Origin: an uncultured Bacteroidales bacterium
GTDB lineage: Bacteria > Bacteroidota > Bacteroidia > Bacteroidales > GCA-2711565
DNA: 64,000 bases
Assembly (NCBI GenBank): GCA_942491855.1
Contig: CALOCL010000041.1
Location: forward strand, 81,024 to 145,023
Reading direction: 5' to 3'
The translations under genes and the position numbers were made by a program. Below, piece after piece: positions 5,538 through 62,375 of this stretch (positions within the stretch are counted from its first letter, which is position 1; each line of letters starts with the position of its first letter). The notes below the pieces were generated by a model, which ran no database searches, had not been told where the DNA came from, and was given only the letters and a program-made list of their open reading frames with translations.

Positions 5538-5645
5538 TAGTTATAGAGAAGAGGGGAGAGATTAGGCTCTACGAACCTCTAGCAACCTTCTAAAAATTGG
5601 AAAAGGTGCTAAAACCTAACCTGCAATATTGCAGGAAATGATAAA
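5538..5645 (+). ncRNA. SAM-I riboswitch
   Basis: TTATAGAGA...GAGG-GGAGAG-ATTAGG-CTCT..CCTC-TAGCAACC...GGTGCTAAAACCTAA (pseudoknot ATTAGG/CCTAA), P4 CCTGCAATATTGCAGG, and closing GATAA. It lies upstream of metY/metA. Confidence 0.9.
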
Positions 5646-5656
5646 AAAACACGATA

Positions 5657-9489: not shown

Positions 9490-10482
9490 ATGAAAGTAGC
9501 AGTTGTCGGAGCCACAGGGCTTGTCGGAAGAAAAATTCTTGAACTAATGGAAGAAAGATCAATTGAAATGACCGAATTAATTCCGGTTGCTTCTGAAAGA
9601 TCAGTGGGTAAAAAAATCAGTTTTAAAGGAACAGATTGGACGATTAAATCATTAGCAGATGCTGTGAATTTAAAACCTGATGTTGCACTATTTTCGGCCG
9701 GTGGAGAAACCTCCTTAAAATGGGCTGAAGCTTTTGCGGAGAAAGGAACCTTTGTGATTGATAATTCTTCTGCTTGGCGCATGCATCCTGACAAAAAATT
9801 GGTGGTGCCGGAAATAAATGCTAACCAAATCACAGCCAAAGATAAAATTATTGCAAACCCTAACTGTTCTACCATACAAATGGTTTTAGCCTTGGCGCCC
9901 CTGCATAAAAAGTACAAAGTTAAAAGAGTGGTTGTTTCTACCTATCAGAGCATAACCGGATCAGGTATTGCTGCAGTTAATCAGTTGGAAGATGAAAGAA
10001 ATGGAATTGACGGTCCAAAAAAATATCCTCATGTAATTGATAAAAACTGCATCCCTCAATGCGATGACTTTAGTGATGGGGATTACACCAAAGAAGAATT
10101 AAAATTGGTTAACGAAACCAAGAAAATTTTAGGTGATGACAGCATTCAGGTAACAGCAACTGCTGTTCGTGTACCTTTGGTAGGCGGACATTCTGAATCG
10201 CTAAATGTTGAATTTTATAAAGAATATGAATTGGCTGATATCAGGCCTTTGCTTGAGGGTGAAGATGGAATTACGGTAATGGATGATATTAAAAACAGTG
10301 TGTATCCAATGCCTTTAAACGCCCATGAAAAGGATGATGTTTTTGTGGGACGAATCAGAAGAGATTTTTCTCAGCCTAAATCCTTAAACCTTTGGGTAGT
10401 GTCAGATAACCTGAGAAAGGGAGCAGCAACCAATGCAGTTCAAATCATGGAATACTTAATCAAAAATGATTTTATTCGTTAA
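9490..10482 (+). CDS. asd: aspartate-semialdehyde dehydrogenase
   Basis: VGATGLVG, DNSSAWRM, IANPNCST, VRVP..GGHSES, DNLRKGAATNAVQI. Confidence 0.97.
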   Translation: MKVAVVGATGLVGRKILELMEERSIEMTELIPVASERSVGKKISFKGTDWTIKSLADAVNLKPDVALFSAGGETSLKWAEAFAEKGTFVIDNSSAWRMHPDKKLVVPEINANQITAKDKIIANPNCSTIQMVLALAPLHKKYKVKRVVVSTYQSITGSGIAAVNQLEDERNGIDGPKKYPHVIDKNCIPQCDDFSDGDYTKEELKLVNETKKILGDDSIQVTATAVRVPLVGGHSESLNVEFYKEYELADIRPLLEGEDGITVMDDIKNSVYPMPLNAHEKDDVFVGRIRRDFSQPKSLNLWVVSDNLRKGAATNAVQIMEYLIKNDFIR

Positions 10483-11128
10483 GTTGCTTCAGAACATTAA
10501 ATGTTAAGGCTGCATCTTGTTCGTCTACAACTATCGTAAATTCGTTGGTTGTCGAAATAAGTTCAATGATATTGATTTTGTTCCAGGCCAGTTTTTTAAG
10601 AATAAAATAGTACAAGCCAGTCATGTGTGTATTGTTTTCTGGCAATCTTAAAGTTACGGACGATAACTTATCAATTCGTGAAACCAATCTTTCGGTATTA
10701 AAAAGTGTTTCTAAGTCTTCACTCATTGAGCTGCTTATTACCATGGTCGTTTCGTAAATGCCCTGAGAAAAAGTGTAAAAACATTCTCTTTTATTTTCGA
10801 TTTGTTTAAGTAAGGACATTTGTTTCTCAACAATTCGATCTGAATTTTTGTAGGTAAAATCTGACAGCTTGGATCGCACGGTAATTTCTCCCATTTGCCG
10901 TAACGACTTCATGAGTTTCATGTTTAAACTGGGATCAAGTTGTGAAGTGTATCTTTTTAAGGCCATCAGGATGGCTCCTTCTTTTACCGTTCTGCCAAGG
11001 GTTTGCTCAATTTCAGGTTGTACGGTTCGGGCCATGGCAGAAAGATTTACCAATCCTTCTGACATAACTTCTTCTAAAAAGGGTCGCTGACTAATAACTT
11101 TTTCAACGATTTGTGCAATGGTTAACAT
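10472..11128 (-). CDS. ACT-domain protein with helical N-terminal domain, no kinase domain; putative amino-acid-responsive regulator
   Basis: N-terminal GLVNLSAMAR...EGAILMALKR helical (HTH-like) segment; C-terminal tandem ACT-like repeats (GIYETTMVIS; GLYYFILKKLAWNKINIIELISTTNEFT); divergent from dapA. Confidence 0.75.
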   Translation of the reverse strand: MLTIAQIVEKVISQRPFLEEVMSEGLVNLSAMARTVQPEIEQTLGRTVKEGAILMALKRYTSQLDPSLNMKLMKSLRQMGEITVRSKLSDFTYKNSDRIVEKQMSLLKQIENKRECFYTFSQGIYETTMVISSSMSEDLETLFNTERLVSRIDKLSSVTLRLPENNTHMTGLYYFILKKLAWNKINIIELISTTNEFTIVVDEQDAALTFNVLKQLNE

Positions 11129-11251
11129 AATTCAAATTATAACTTATTGTTAAATTATCAACAAATATAAATAAAATTGAACAAATTTATCAAAAATTTA
11201 TTTACCTCAAGTCTTTCAAATAATTTTGCCGCTTAATAAAAATCATAAAAA

Positions 11252-12169
11252 ATGAATAATATTTCGGACTTAAGAGGATCTATTGTAGCCATAGTGACAC
11301 CGTTTAATGAAATGGGCGATATTGACTATCTGGCTTTAGATGGATTAATAGCATTTCATTTGGAAAACAACACCAATGGAATCGTTGTTTGTGGTACAAC
11401 CGGCGAAGCAAGTACCATGGATGATGCAGAATACGCAGAAATTGTAGAATTTGTAGTTAGGCGTGTTAATCATCAAATTCCGGTCATTGCCGGATCAGGT
11501 GGAAATTCTACCATTCAAACTTTGAAAAAATCACAAATTGCCATCAGTTGTGGTGTTGATGCTTTGTTGGTAGTAACTCCGTATTACAACAAACCAAATA
11601 CTCGTGGCATGTATGCGCATTACAAATACATTGCTGAGAATGTAGATGTCCCAATTATTCTTTACAACGTGCCTTCACGCACGGGAAGCAATTTGTCTCC
11701 TAAGCTAACGCTGCAGCTTGCTCATGATTTTGAAAATATTGTGGCCATTAAAGAAGCTACAGGTGATCTCAATCAGATGATGGAAATTATTAGCAATCGT
11801 CCGGCAGGATTTAAGGTTTATTCAGGAGAAGACACCTTAGCCTTGCCCATGCTGTCGATAGGAGCTGATGGCTGTATTTCTGTTGCTGCAAACATTATCC
11901 CAAAGGCGTTTAGTCGAATTATGGAACTTGGTTTGAACCAAGATTTTCATGCAGCACGTGAAATTCAATACAAGTATTTAAAATTGATGAATTTGAATTT
12001 TATTGAGTCGAATCCAATTCCGGTAAAAACAGCTTTGTTTTTAATGGGAATGATTCAAAATCAATTCAGATTGCCACTGGCACCAATTTCTACAGAAGAA
12101 AACCTAAGTGCATTAAGAAACGAATTACAACGGCTTGAATTGATCAATTCAAAAGTTTTAAGTTCATAA
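11252..12169 (+). CDS. dapA: 4-hydroxy-tetrahydrodipicolinate synthase
   Basis: GTTGE, PYYNKP, YNVPSRTG, AIKEATG, FIESNPIPVK; promoter TAATTTTG at 11221. Confidence 0.96.
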   Translation: MNNISDLRGSIVAIVTPFNEMGDIDYLALDGLIAFHLENNTNGIVVCGTTGEASTMDDAEYAEIVEFVVRRVNHQIPVIAGSGGNSTIQTLKKSQIAISCGVDALLVVTPYYNKPNTRGMYAHYKYIAENVDVPIILYNVPSRTGSNLSPKLTLQLAHDFENIVAIKEATGDLNQMMEIISNRPAGFKVYSGEDTLALPMLSIGADGCISVAANIIPKAFSRIMELGLNQDFHAAREIQYKYLKLMNLNFIESNPIPVKTALFLMGMIQNQFRLPLAPISTEENLSALRNELQRLELINSKVLSS

Positions 12170-12191
12170 TTAAGTGGAGGAGAGAGTTTAA

Positions 12192-13523
12192 ATGAGAGTT
12201 TGTAAGTTTGGAGGAACCTCCATTGGTTCAGCAGAAAGAATGAGGCAAGTGGCCCATATCGTTCGTGAAAACAAGTCAGCATTTATCGTTTTATCAGCCA
12301 TGTCGGGTACAACAAATACCCTGGTTGAAATAAATAGTTTGTTAAAGAAAAAAAACATAGATGGAGCCTCTGGCTCGCTTCACGAACTAAAACTTAGTTA
12401 CTTAACCGAATCAGGAAAGCTATTCAGCGACTTTGGAGATCCTTCTTTTATGGACGATACCATCAACAATTTCTTTGAGAATATTTTGCAGCTATTCGAT
12501 CGCCCTTACGATGTTGAATTAGAAAAAGAAATACTTGTTAAGGGTGAATTTATTACCACGCAAATTTTTACAACTTATTTAAAACTACTGGGGCTGAAGG
12601 CAAAAAATATTTCTGCCTTGCGGTTTATGCGTACCGATAGAGATTCAGAGCCTGATCACTACTATATTTCTGAAAAATTGTCTGAAATTTTGAAAATAAA
12701 TTCTGACATTAATTATTTTATCATCCAGGGTTATGTTTGTAAAAATGTGGAAGGAAAAACAGATAATTTAGGCAGGGGTGGAAGTGATTATTCAGCTACA
12801 ATAATTGGTGCAGCTATTAATGCCGAAGATGTTCAAATTTGGACTGATATTGATGGCATGCACAACAACGATCCGCGTTATGTTGAAAACACACAATCAA
12901 TCGAAAAGCTATCCTACAATGAAGCTGAAGAATTGGCATTTTTTGGAGCAAAAATTTTACATCCTACCTGCATTATTCCGGCAAGAAATAAAAATATCCC
13001 TATTTTTATAAAAAGTACCATGGCACCGGAAGCAAATGGAACCTTGATTAACAGTGAGGTCTTAAAGGAAGGAGTGAAGGCTGTTGCGGCTAAAGATGGG
13101 ATCATTGCCATTAAAATCAAGTCGACACGGATGATGTTAGCCTATGGCTTTTTAAGAAAAGTGTTTGAAGTTTTAGAGGACTACAAAACACCAATTGACA
13201 TGGTAACGACTTCTGAAGTTGCCATTTCGATGACCATTGATAACGCGGAGTATTTGAACGAAATTGTTAATAAATTAAATAAGCTGGGTGAAGTAACTGT
13301 CACAGAAAATCAATCCATCATTTGTGTTGTGGGTAATTTTCACGCACGTACACGAGGAATGGTTGGATTGGTGGGAGCCAGCTTAAAAAACATCCCAATC
13401 CGTATGATTTCATTCGGTGCCAGTAGCAGTAATATCACCCTTTTGATCGGCACGGAAAATAAACCCAAGGCATTAAATTTTTTAAGTGAATCATTATTTT
13501 TAAACAAAGCAGCTTATGTTTAA
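12192..13523 (+). CDS. lysC: aspartokinase (lysine-branch)
   Basis: KFGGTS, SAMSGTT, LGRGGSDYSA, WTDIDG, ELAFFGAKILHP, two ACT domains; lies within the dapA-lysA operon. Confidence 0.93.
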   Translation: MRVCKFGGTSIGSAERMRQVAHIVRENKSAFIVLSAMSGTTNTLVEINSLLKKKNIDGASGSLHELKLSYLTESGKLFSDFGDPSFMDDTINNFFENILQLFDRPYDVELEKEILVKGEFITTQIFTTYLKLLGLKAKNISALRFMRTDRDSEPDHYYISEKLSEILKINSDINYFIIQGYVCKNVEGKTDNLGRGGSDYSATIIGAAINAEDVQIWTDIDGMHNNDPRYVENTQSIEKLSYNEAEELAFFGAKILHPTCIIPARNKNIPIFIKSTMAPEANGTLINSEVLKEGVKAVAAKDGIIAIKIKSTRMMLAYGFLRKVFEVLEDYKTPIDMVTTSEVAISMTIDNAEYLNEIVNKLNKLGEVTVTENQSIICVVGNFHARTRGMVGLVGASLKNIPIRMISFGASSSNITLLIGTENKPKALNFLSESLFLNKAAYV

Positions 13524-14742
13524 CTCATCATTAATAAATACATTTCAACATATCCCAACACCCTTTTATTATTACGATTTAAGCTTGTTGGAGAAAACCA
13601 TTTTAGAGCTCAAAAATCTAATTGATGAGGATGTGTTTCAAATACACTACGCTTTTAAAGCCAATGTAAATGAGCCTATTTTAAATTTGATAAAAAAGCA
13701 TGGTTTTGGTGCCGATTGTGTGAGTGGAAATGAAGTTCTACACGCATTACAGCTTGGGTTTGATCCCAAAAAAATTGTGTTTGCAGGAGTTGGTAAATCT
13801 GATGAAGAAATTGAAATCGCGCTGGAAAACGATATCGGATTTTTTAATTGTGAATCCTTGCAGGAAGTTAGGGTAATCAATGAAATTTCCATGGCAAAAA
13901 ATAAAACTGCAAAAATTGCGATTCGTATTAATCCAAACGTTGAAGCAAAAACCCATCGTTACATTACCACTGGCATGCAGACCAATAAATTTGGCTTTAG
14001 TCAGGAAGAGTTGGAAGAGTTTTTGGGCATTTTAGATGAATTTCCTGCTATTGAAATCAAAGGTTTGCATTTTCATATCGGGTCACAGGTCTTAGATTTA
14101 GATGTGTTTAAAAACCTATGCCTAAGGGTAAATGAAATTCAGGATTGGTTTGAAGCTAGAAATTTTTCTTTAGAACACATCAATCTAGGTGGCGGCCTGG
14201 GAATCGATTATGAAAATCCTGATGAAAATCCGATTCCAAATTTTGAAAAACTAATAGAAATCATTAATCAGAATTTGATCAGACGCCCCATGCAAAAGAT
14301 TCACCTCGAGCCAGGTAGATCAATTGTTGGACAATGCGGTACACTGGTAAGTAAAGTATTGTACGTAAAAAATGGTGGAAGTAAAAGATTTGCAGTGATT
14401 GATGCCGGTTTTACCGAATTAATCAGAACAGCATTGTATCAGGCATTTCATAATATTCAAAATATCAGCTCAAACCTAACTCCAAAAGCCTATGACATTG
14501 TTGGACCCGTTTGTGAAACCACCGATAGTTTTGGCAGTGAAGTAGAACTTCCCGAAACCAAACGTGGTGATTTACTTGCTATTCGCTCTACAGGTGCTTA
14601 TGGAGAAGTAATGTCATCTTACTACAATCTACGAAAGAAAGTTAAATCATATTATTCTTCGGATTTTGAAGAACAAAATGTGATTGACTATTTTCAAACA
14701 CAACCCGAAGTTATTTCCATGGAAATTAACATGAATCTTTAA
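13516..14742 (+). CDS. lysA: diaminopimelate decarboxylase
   Basis: HYAFKAN (PLP Lys), HFHIGSQ, GGGLGIDY, EPGRSIV, VGPVCET, GAYGEVMSS.YN. Confidence 0.95.
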   Translation: MFNSSLINTFQHIPTPFYYYDLSLLEKTILELKNLIDEDVFQIHYAFKANVNEPILNLIKKHGFGADCVSGNEVLHALQLGFDPKKIVFAGVGKSDEEIEIALENDIGFFNCESLQEVRVINEISMAKNKTAKIAIRINPNVEAKTHRYITTGMQTNKFGFSQEELEEFLGILDEFPAIEIKGLHFHIGSQVLDLDVFKNLCLRVNEIQDWFEARNFSLEHINLGGGLGIDYENPDENPIPNFEKLIEIINQNLIRRPMQKIHLEPGRSIVGQCGTLVSKVLYVKNGGSKRFAVIDAGFTELIRTALYQAFHNIQNISSNLTPKAYDIVGPVCETTDSFGSEVELPETKRGDLLAIRSTGAYGEVMSSYYNLRKKVKSYYSSDFEEQNVIDYFQTQPEVISMEINMNL

Positions 14743-14751
14743 ATTAGAAAA

Positions 14752-15479
14752 ATGAATATAGCGATTATCGGCTATGGCCGAATGGGACAGGAGATTGAAA
14801 AAATCTCATTAAAACGAGGTCATCAAATTGTAATTAAAATTGATGAAAATAATCTCGATGAGATATATAAAATGAATTCTACGAAAATGTGGATGTTGCC
14901 ATTGAATTTACCAATCCTGATTCCGCCTATAGAAATATCTTAAATTGCTTTCAGGCTAATATTCCTGTTATAAGTGGAACTACAGGTTGGACAGCTAAGC
15001 TTGCTGAATTAAAAGAACGAAGTTTTAATGAAAAGAAAGGGTTTTTATATGCTTCAAATTTTAGTGTTGGTGTAAATGTTTTATTTGCGTTGAATAAAAA
15101 ACTTGCCCAAATCATGAATAATTATCCAGCATATACCGCAAATACTCAGGAAACACATCATACTAAAAAGCTCGACAGTCCGAGCGGAACAGCCATAACA
15201 CTTGCCGAGGGGATTATTCAAAATTCGAATAGTCTGGAAAACTGGGCTGAAACGAATAATCCGGATAAAAGCACCTTGGGCATTCAAGCTTTTCGTGAGG
15301 GAGAGGTTCCGGGAATACACAAAGTGATTTATGAGTCTTCTTTTGATACACTTCAGATTTCACATTCTGCTAAGAGCCGAGAAGGATTTGCTATAGGTGC
15401 AGTTTTAGCAGCCGAGTTTTTACAGCACAAGAGCAGTTATTACGAAATGAAAGATGTATTGCATCTCAATACACTTTAG
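14752..15479 (+). pseudogene. dapB: 4-hydroxy-tetrahydrodipicolinate reductase, frameshifted in this sequence (probably an assembly error)
   Basis: IIGYGRMG N-terminus in one frame; DVAIEFT...GTTGW...SNFSVG...ETHHTKKLDSPSGTA in another. Adding one A to the A4 run at 14869-14872 joins them (...IYKNEFYENVDVAIEF). Confidence 0.9.
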
Positions 15480-62104: not shown

Positions 62105-62375
62105 TTCTTATTTTAATTATAGGTTAGTTATTAATTTCATCAAATCCACTATTTCATAAAAATTCAGTTGTTAGACCGTTAACAAATATAAAAAAATATA
62201 TCTGAAATTGAAAATTGAAATTAAATAAACACCTGATAGATTTTTGGAGTTAGAAGCCTGGTCACGCAATGCAATTTAAAAGCCATAATTCTTCCAATAA
62301 TTAATAAATATACTTTAATTTTATTGCCTCAATCAAACCATGAATCTGATAATTTTATTACATAAATAACTAAGC

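Follow-up and report, generated by a model that had tools for sequence, protein, structure and literature searches.

We propose that P0001, a protein of 218 amino acids encoded in a stretch of DNA from an uncultured Bacteroidales bacterium (64,000 nucleotides of contig CALOCL010000041.1; this whole stretch is called the window), is, as far as sequence comparison and modelling can tell, probably a DNA-binding, lysine-responsive one-component transcription factor that belongs to an undescribed, Bacteroidota-wide family. Its gene, which was delimited by its open reading frame and translation, occupies positions 10472..11128 of the minus strand (stop codon at 10472-10474), encodes an ACT protein that has no kinase domain, and is divergent from the presumed target operon dapA-lysC-lysA-dapB (11252..15479, plus strand), which was recognised by family matches. 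A conserved operator was found both at the gene itself and at the target promoters, where it co-occurs with the protein, and it is on this that the functional class was decided. We also lean, with rather less assurance, towards a wider picture of a phylum-wide family of transcription factors in which a lysine sensor derived from aspartokinase is joined to a new small helical DNA-binding domain related to DUF7523. Such factors would activate the lysine genes of the diaminopimelate (DAP) or alpha-aminoadipate pathway, repress themselves and perhaps a lysine-catabolic dehydrogenase, and take the place in Bacteroidota that belongs elsewhere to the L box or to LysR/ArgP.

One line of support for the proposal is the palindrome next to the gene. 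P0001 and dapA are separated by 123 bp (11129-11251), as an earlier sequence-only reading of the window had described, and the first inverted repeat that it had pointed out, TTGTT-N8-AACAA at 11147-11164, proved to be conserved, with two matches in the window vs. 0.33 expected. Within it lies the 16-bp palindrome TGTTAAATTATCAACA (11148..11163), a candidate operator that is conserved across loci with the family core TGTTA-N6-TAACA. This core was detected in nearly every intergenic region between a gene of the family and a lys gene, and where the gene did not adjoin lys genes, the same palindrome was still found directly upstream of it. A matrix built from 23 sites was applied with a main threshold of 11.5 bits and a looser one of 9.5 bits. 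A site of at least 11.5 bits was present no more than 200 bp upstream of the start codon in 40 of the 46 loci (45 of the 46 at 9.5 bits), and the remaining flanking DNA of these loci had four such sites in 316 kb. The high-GC loci, which were left out of the matrix training, have isolated AT-rich islands with TGTTATAAATATAACA, TGTTATATTTAAAACA and TGTTGTATATACAACA in DNA of 58-69% GC. Phylogenetic footprinting thus upheld one of the two palindromes of the sequence-only reading: the first travels with the gene across the phylum, while the second was not significant. The latter, TTGA-N9-TCAA, is indeed present at 11177-11193, and its six matches in the window vs. 4.35 expected are at chance level. 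It was rejected as an operator because of this frequency, because only GAACA (11179..11183), the sole part that is conserved in the genus and that may be an auxiliary half-site, was retained, and because its right arm is a likely -33 TTTG.

The placement of the palindrome relative to the promoters suggests how it might work. The sequence TAATTTTG (11221..11228, plus strand), in which the sequence-only reading had correctly recognised the -7 element of dapA, agrees with TAnnTTTG, the -7 consensus of Bacteroidota; it is located 65 bp downstream of the palindrome centre and 23 bp before the dapA ATG. Of 25 dapA, lysC and lysA promoters from several families, 15 have an exact TAnnTTTG that begins 64-66 bp downstream of the site centre, and the offset is 70-74 bp in five promoters of operons in which a DUF6913 gene precedes dapA; in many promoters, the main palindrome is followed by additional TGTT half-sites about 20 and about 30 bp away. 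For the regulator's own promoter, the candidate -7 box is TATATTTG (11162..11169, minus strand), which is conserved in relatives as CAAAnnTA on the plus strand and which overlaps the palindrome edge, so that the transcription start would fall inside the palindrome. Its candidate -33 element is the TTTG at 11191..11194 (minus strand), which is 21 nt upstream of this -7 box and coincides with the right arm of the second palindrome. The regulator's own promoter in the Flavobacteriaceae-like loci has its -7 box 14-24 bp from the site centre, which places the palindrome over the -33 region. A site upstream of the core promoter, with its centre 64-74 bp before the -7 box, would suggest activation of the lys promoters, while autorepression would be suggested by a site that overlaps the -7 box and the transcription start in the divergent loci and the -33 element in the Flavobacteriaceae-like loci. 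This combination, upstream at the targets and across the core promoter at the regulator's own gene, is typical of activators that repress themselves, e.g., the LysR-type regulators. If the ACT module mediates dimerisation as it does in the aspartokinase beta subunits, a dimer might bind the palindrome with its N-terminal domains; lysine, once bound to the ACT module, would then detach or inactivate the protein and so switch the pathway off. Both the direction of control and the identity of the ligand are what we infer from this arrangement. Control by a leader RNA was rejected for dapA, in agreement with the sequence-only reading: its leader has only about 20 nt, and searches of Rfam at the gathering threshold and at E<=10 gave no relevant family, neither the lysine riboswitch (L box, RF00168) nor an attenuator.

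Comparison of the gene neighbourhoods links the family to lysine rather than to aspartokinase. All nine informative loci of the window's own genus, and one locus of another family, have the gene in divergent orientation to lysine genes; its partners in these ten loci are dapA-lysC-lysA-dapB, dapA-lysC-dapB, lysC alone or lysA alone. Divergence from dapA, lysC, lysA or dapB was also seen beyond the genus, in other families and classes (at least 16 genomes), the partner being lysC in seven genomes and dapA in three elsewhere in the phylum, and lysC-lysA-dapB, dapB-dapA or lysC-dapB-dapA in the high-GC genomes of other classes. A 36%-identical homologue in G092 (64% GC; L177:3810-7787) is divergent from the genes for homocitrate synthase-LysX-LysY, and the dapA search gave no match in this genome. 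It appears that lysine is made by the alpha-aminoadipate (LysW-type) pathway in G092, a Bacteroidota genome, with control by a member of the same regulator family. The sole common feature of the neighbourhoods is the end product lysine, which argues against a dedicated aspartokinase subunit as well as against DAP as the signal. Lysine is favoured as the ligand because this one homologue adjoins an alpha-aminoadipate cluster and lysine is the only metabolite that is common to both pathways. In the Flavobacteriaceae-like family, the neighbourhood is a different one, with genes for an LD-carboxypeptidase and a UPF0102 protein ahead of the regulator gene; in genus g37, it was consistently found after LD-carboxypeptidase and UPF0102/YraN genes (L023, L031, L034 and other loci). 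LD-carboxypeptidase participates in the recycling of DAP-containing murein tetrapeptides, and a link of the regulator to DAP recycling is possible in this genus.

The site was also found at lysine operons that are not linked to the gene, which, together with the footprinting, supports the proposal of the sequence-only reading that P0001 is a dedicated regulator of the operon, with DNA binding as a predicted property. An exact-pattern scan of five genomes gave 3-21 matches per genome; among these, three genomes had a site before a DUF6913-dapA operon, one had a site before GNAT-lysC, and one had a site before a gene for an AlaDh/PNT-family dehydrogenase. For co-occurrence, the dapA, lysA and lysC loci of 15 genomes with the protein and 15 without it were compared (14 families in all, seven with carriers and ten with non-carriers), and a genome was counted when the 1.5 kb upstream contained a site that scored 11.5 bits or more. 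A site at dapA was present in 8/14 genomes with the protein vs. 0/15 without it, at lysA in 6/15 vs. 0/14, and at lysC in 6/9 vs. 1/7, the single site in a non-carrier being weak and having a TGCT arm. Within family f38, the carrier genus has the dapA site and two non-carrier genera do not.

Two of these unlinked operons deserve a comment of their own. In Flavobacteriaceae-like genomes, a DUF6913 gene that encodes about 175 amino acids is the first gene of the dapA operon behind the palindrome (L073:2627-3151, L074, L079); the arrangement was seen in G377, G185 and G329 and also in G333 and G393, and the DUF6913 protein is a candidate for an unrecognised component of the lysine/DAP pathway. 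The gene for a 402-amino-acid AlaDh/PNT-family dehydrogenase in G185 (L071:2530-3795) is preceded by TGTTATATTTGTAACA, which copies the regulator's own palindrome perfectly and has a -7 box embedded in its spacer. The enzyme may be a lysine-catabolic one of the saccharopine/lysine dehydrogenase type that is repressed by the same factor.

The protein itself has two parts, in line with the helical N-terminus, ACT-like repeats and missing kinase domain that the sequence-only reading had described. The AlphaFold2 model, which was based on 25 homologues, has a predicted local distance difference test (pLDDT) score of 88.8 and consists of four helices (4-13, 16-23, 29-44 and 50-77) followed by two interleaved beta-alpha-beta-beta-alpha-beta units, i.e., a two-ACT module. 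According to this model and to Foldseek, residues 80-218 (10475..10891, minus strand) form a tandem ACT sensor module with the fold of the aspartokinase beta subunits: the best Foldseek matches for residues ~70-218 were aspartokinase regulatory subunits or domains (2zho, 3ab2, 2dtj, 6mx1 and 3s1t; E 6e-8 to 1e-6, template modelling score to the target ~0.7). The amino-acid kinase catalytic domain that is required for an aspartate kinase (EC 2.7.2.4) was not found in P0001, which had no match to AA_kinase (PF00696), whereas both aspartokinases of the locus scored 143-147 bits. At the level of sequence families, the only hits of P0001 were weak and below threshold. They were DUF7523 (PF24367), with 23 bits for residues 5-69 against a gathering cut-off of 27, where the match spans only positions 3-59 of the 158-position model, and asp_kin_monofn (TIGR00656), with 17.6 bits against a cut-off of 402. 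Some homologues have a precomputed hit to PF24367. The Pfam models ACT, ACT_7 and ACT_9 gave no match to P0001 at E<=0.01, and the family profile reached E=0.16-0.46 against the aspartokinase sequences of the PDB. A BLASTP comparison of P0001 with the local aspartokinases gave E values of 0.6-1.3, and a recent duplication of the ACT region of the neighbouring enzyme was rejected as its origin. Within the ACT module of the family, G171 is invariant and an S-T-T-N-E motif stands at 192-196; the family pattern G171-x4-I...GINI..I-S-T-T-N-E aligns with G....I...GINI.ISTSE of the aspartokinases, a resemblance that is faint at the sequence level and beside which nothing else is visible. Substitutions of T344, S345 and E346 in this motif of E. 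coli AKIII are listed as feedback-deregulating (PMC3195717). The shared motif could be regarded as a lead for a lysine pocket in P0001, not as a result.

The remaining residues, 1-78 (10895..11128, minus strand), form a four-helix domain that is weakly DUF7523-like and that is, based on the model and on conservation, the candidate DNA-binding domain. Predicted alone, it was again a confident helical bundle (pLDDT 82.5). Its (nearly) invariant residues are N28, S30, R34, M55 and R59, of which the polar N28, S30, R34 and R59 are located at the start of helix 3 and in helix 4, and they would fit a recognition surface, without proving one. DNA binding by this domain, whose fold is not recognisably a helix-turn-helix (HTH), is the second point that we infer. 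The domain is not detectably related to the Rex DNA-binding domain, of which it was rejected as a diverged form at a hhalign probability of 0.5%, and P0001 has neither the Rex architecture (Put_DNA-bind_N, PF06971, with a CoA-binding Rossmann domain) nor a Pfam or NCBIfam match to that of Lrp/AsnC (HTH_AsnC-type with RAM/AsnC_trans_reg).

A total of 541 homologues of 216-225 amino acids were found, all apparently from Bacteroidota, and their source names were "aspartate kinase", "aspartokinase" or "hypothetical protein", which bears out the expectation that the family is often mislabelled. In an even sample of the phylum, 38 of 400 high-quality Bacteroidota genomes carried the family; it was nearly universal in one taxonomic family (25/28, with 15/15 in one genus) and absent from two large ones (0/86 and 0/61). 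Nine of the 12 genomes of the window's own genus have the gene, the other three being 68-78% complete, and in the high-GC carriers of other classes the identity of the protein falls to 26-29%. When 1.84 billion representatives were searched with a profile of the N-terminal domain, the best 150 matches, beyond which there were about 1,500 weaker ones, all belonged to the same family or were fragments, with no new domain partner among the matches listed, and no fused longer forms of the family scored, which is weak evidence. One metagenomic protein, P0183 (460 amino acids), has the whole architecture of the family tandemly duplicated in a single polypeptide, with two matches to the N-terminal domain; its second half reached 32 bits for DUF7523 and a sub-threshold 22.9 bits vs. 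27 for ACT_7. Judging from its sequence, it would in effect be a covalent dimer, as expected if the protein acts as a dimer. Full-text literature searches found no paper describing the family, which is most likely previously undescribed and would combine an unusual sensor with an unrecognised, putative DNA-binding domain.

Several observations weigh against P0001 as the lysine-responsive factor that binds the palindrome. An HTH, which the sequence-only reading had looked to structure prediction to reveal, was not demonstrated: the N-terminal domain matched no Pfam HTH family, Foldseek with the isolated domain against the PDB gave nothing below E=3, and the best Z scores in a representative-wide VIA-align search, 5-6, are in the noise range for helical domains. 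The VIA-align matches were a mixture that included BEN, cullin WHB, Fur/PerR/Zur and homeodomains, and a PDB profile search as well as the ESM Atlas gave only weak leads. The 40 of 46 loci with a site are partly a circular count, since many of the counted sites had already gone into the training of the matrix, and in G229 a clear site was missing. Some carrier genomes have no site at dapA or lysA, and the co-occurrence counts, which come from related genomes, overstate independence and are descriptive rather than a formal test. The offset of the -7 box is not single-valued (65 vs. 70-74 bp). Moreover, the palindrome nearly equals the clostridial-type Rex box, TTGTTAA-N4-TTAACAA or TTGTTAANNNNTTAACAA (PMC8457756), from which the site in the window differs by one mismatch. 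The window's genome (G000) has two Rex genes (C16:56882-57505 and C36:9062-9679), each of which adjoins such a box, and a matrix scan of this genome showed better TGTTAA-N4-TTAACA matches before redox genes than at the lys site. Rex could also touch the window's own site.

The Rex genes and their boxes give weight to the idea that the palindrome 11148-11163 is one more Rex box that ties lysine synthesis to the redox state and that the ACT protein is unrelated to it. In G000, Rex-type boxes (TTGTTA-N6-TAACAA) were found at C16:57581, C36:9911, C34:11452, C34:51493, C25:94039 and C19:61402 and in the window at 62168-62185. The genes behind such boxes encode acetyl-CoA synthetase (acs), biotin carboxylase, a pyruvate:ferredoxin oxidoreductase (PFOR)-like enzyme, a Nuo51-like subunit, a phosphate acetyl/butyryl transferase (pta/ptb) and pyridine-nucleotide oxidoreductases, while the box at 62168-62185, the window's other match, stands between the genes for a bcd-like acyl-CoA dehydrogenase and an iron alcohol dehydrogenase (Fe-ADH). 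G000 has a sizeable Rex regulon with an operator that is almost identical to that of the lysine regulator, and because of these near-identical boxes and the two Rex genes the motif alone does not identify the binder there. An extension of the regulon within G000 by the matrix scan was rejected, as the top matches were Rex-type targets; the 65-bp geometry was found only at the lys site. Outside this genome, the evidence points the other way. Rex was not found in 13 of the 15 tested carrier genomes or in any of five distant high-GC carriers, and these 18 Rex-less carriers keep the palindrome in the same position at the gene and at the lys genes, whereas in G070 and G337, where Rex is present and the protein missing, dapA, lysA and lysC are all without a site. 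Rex is also a repressor whose boxes overlap promoters, unlike a site that is about 65 bp upstream of the -7 box. We consider Rex without any role of P0001 to be a most improbable explanation of the site; as a general one it was rejected, given that most carrier genomes have no Rex, and it was kept as a local caveat. The right arm, which in the window's genus is consistently CAACA or AAACA and not TAACA, might help to separate the lysine and Rex regulons, but this is speculation.

A different partition of roles would leave the sensing of lysine to P0001 and the recognition of the palindrome to a partner, so that P0001 would modulate a DNA-binding factor or RNA polymerase in the manner of GcvR. 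This is consistent with an N-terminal domain that has no recognisable HTH and with the ACT tandem, which is a classic module for ligand binding and protein interaction, and yet it appears unlikely: a further conserved regulator gene was not found around any of the 46 loci, and the palindrome tracks P0001, being absent from the lys promoters of the 15 genomes without the protein (one weak lysC site excepted), so that a hidden partner would need to have been gained and lost jointly with P0001 in many lineages. It is very unlikely that P0001 is a free beta-like subunit of aspartokinase or of another lysine enzyme that is merely co-regulated by some other palindrome-binding factor. The nearest structures are aspartokinase beta subunits and the gene often adjoins lysC; however, it is also found beside dapA, dapB-dapA or lysA without an aspartokinase and beside the alpha-aminoadipate cluster, the adjacent LysC carries two ACT domains of its own, P0001 has no significant sequence similarity to either local aspartokinase, and its conserved N-terminal domain is an extra that is not present in beta subunits. 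A merely co-regulated subunit would also be expected to share the geometry of the targets, while the site at the regulator's own promoter, unlike that at the biosynthetic genes, overlaps the core, which is the signature of an autoregulated factor.

With P0001 as the putative DNA-binding regulator, the locus can be read as two differently controlled branches of one pathway. The presumed target operon on the plus strand comprises dapA (11252-12169), an AKIII-like lysC (12192-13523), lysA (13516-14742) and dapB (14752-15479), the frame of which is broken near 14869-14889. The latter is split between two frames, with the start of DapB_N at 14752-14943 and the remainder at 14889-15479, and this probably reflects an error in the assembly of the metagenome-assembled genome, which is 78% complete. 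On the other side of the P0001 gene, also on the plus strand, lies an operon for a second aspartokinase, O-acetylhomoserine sulfhydrylase (metY), metA and asd, which is preceded by a SAM-I riboswitch (5538-5647; 76.7 bits in Rfam). The two aspartokinases of the locus would therefore be controlled differently, by RNA for the methionine branch, because the SAM-I riboswitch heads its operon, and by a protein, as predicted here, for the lysine branch.

The control of lysine/DAP synthesis in Bacteroidota is essentially uncharted; there is no L box here and no LysR homologue beside these genes. The analysis provides a protein family, a 16-bp operator, a predicted regulon and a hypothesis on the effector, all of which are testable in Flavobacterium and other tractable carriers. 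If the proposal is true, it would explain how lysine synthesis is controlled without a lysine riboswitch, correct a widespread "aspartate kinase" misannotation, give a role to part of DUF7523, add a new combination of DNA-binding domain and sensor to the ACT-domain regulators and provide a compact lysine-responsive switch for synthetic biology in Bacteroidota. The near-identical operator and Rex box in one genome also raise the question of how two regulators are kept apart.

Among the known systems, P0001 shares its two-ACT fold with the aspartokinase beta subunits of T. thermophilus (2zho/2dt9), C. glutamicum (2dtj/3ab2/3aaw) and M. tuberculosis (3s1t), and it keeps the GxxxxI...GINI..ISTxE motif of the aspartokinase ACT domains. 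Unlike these subunits, it has a gene of its own instead of arising in frame from lysC, it lacks a partner kinase domain, and it possesses an additional conserved 78-residue N-terminal domain, a link to an operator and lysine-related neighbours other than aspartokinase. LysM of Sulfolobus, a member of the Lrp/AsnC family with an HTH and a RAM/ACT-like domain, is a lysine-responsive activator of the alpha-aminoadipate lysine operon whose activity is probably weakened by lysine. Like LysM, P0001 is predicted to act on lysine biosynthesis genes as a small one-component factor whose amino-acid sensor has the beta-alpha-beta-beta-alpha-beta fold; it differs in its double aspartokinase-type ACT module, its N-terminal domain, its phylum and its operator. 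In E. coli, LysR and ArgP are the LysR-type regulators of lysA, dapB and lysC, and they resemble the predicted system in the divergent regulator gene, the probable autorepression and the activating site upstream of the core promoter. P0001, however, has no LysR_substrate or HTH_1 domain, is much smaller and would probably perceive lysine as its effector through the ACT domains.

GcvR has two ACT domains and no DNA-binding domain and acts through GcvA. P0001 is likewise a small tandem-ACT protein and a predicted regulator of amino-acid genes, although it has no evident partner and does have an additional N-terminal domain and a gene-linked palindrome. With Rex, it shares nearly the same 16-18 bp palindrome as operator, whereas the protein is unrelated, the regulon consists of lysine rather than redox genes and the site persists in genomes without Rex. 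Finally, the predicted role of P0001, lysine feedback on the dap/lys genes, is that of the lysine riboswitch (L box, RF00168), which, in contrast, is RNA-based and absent at the dapA leader.

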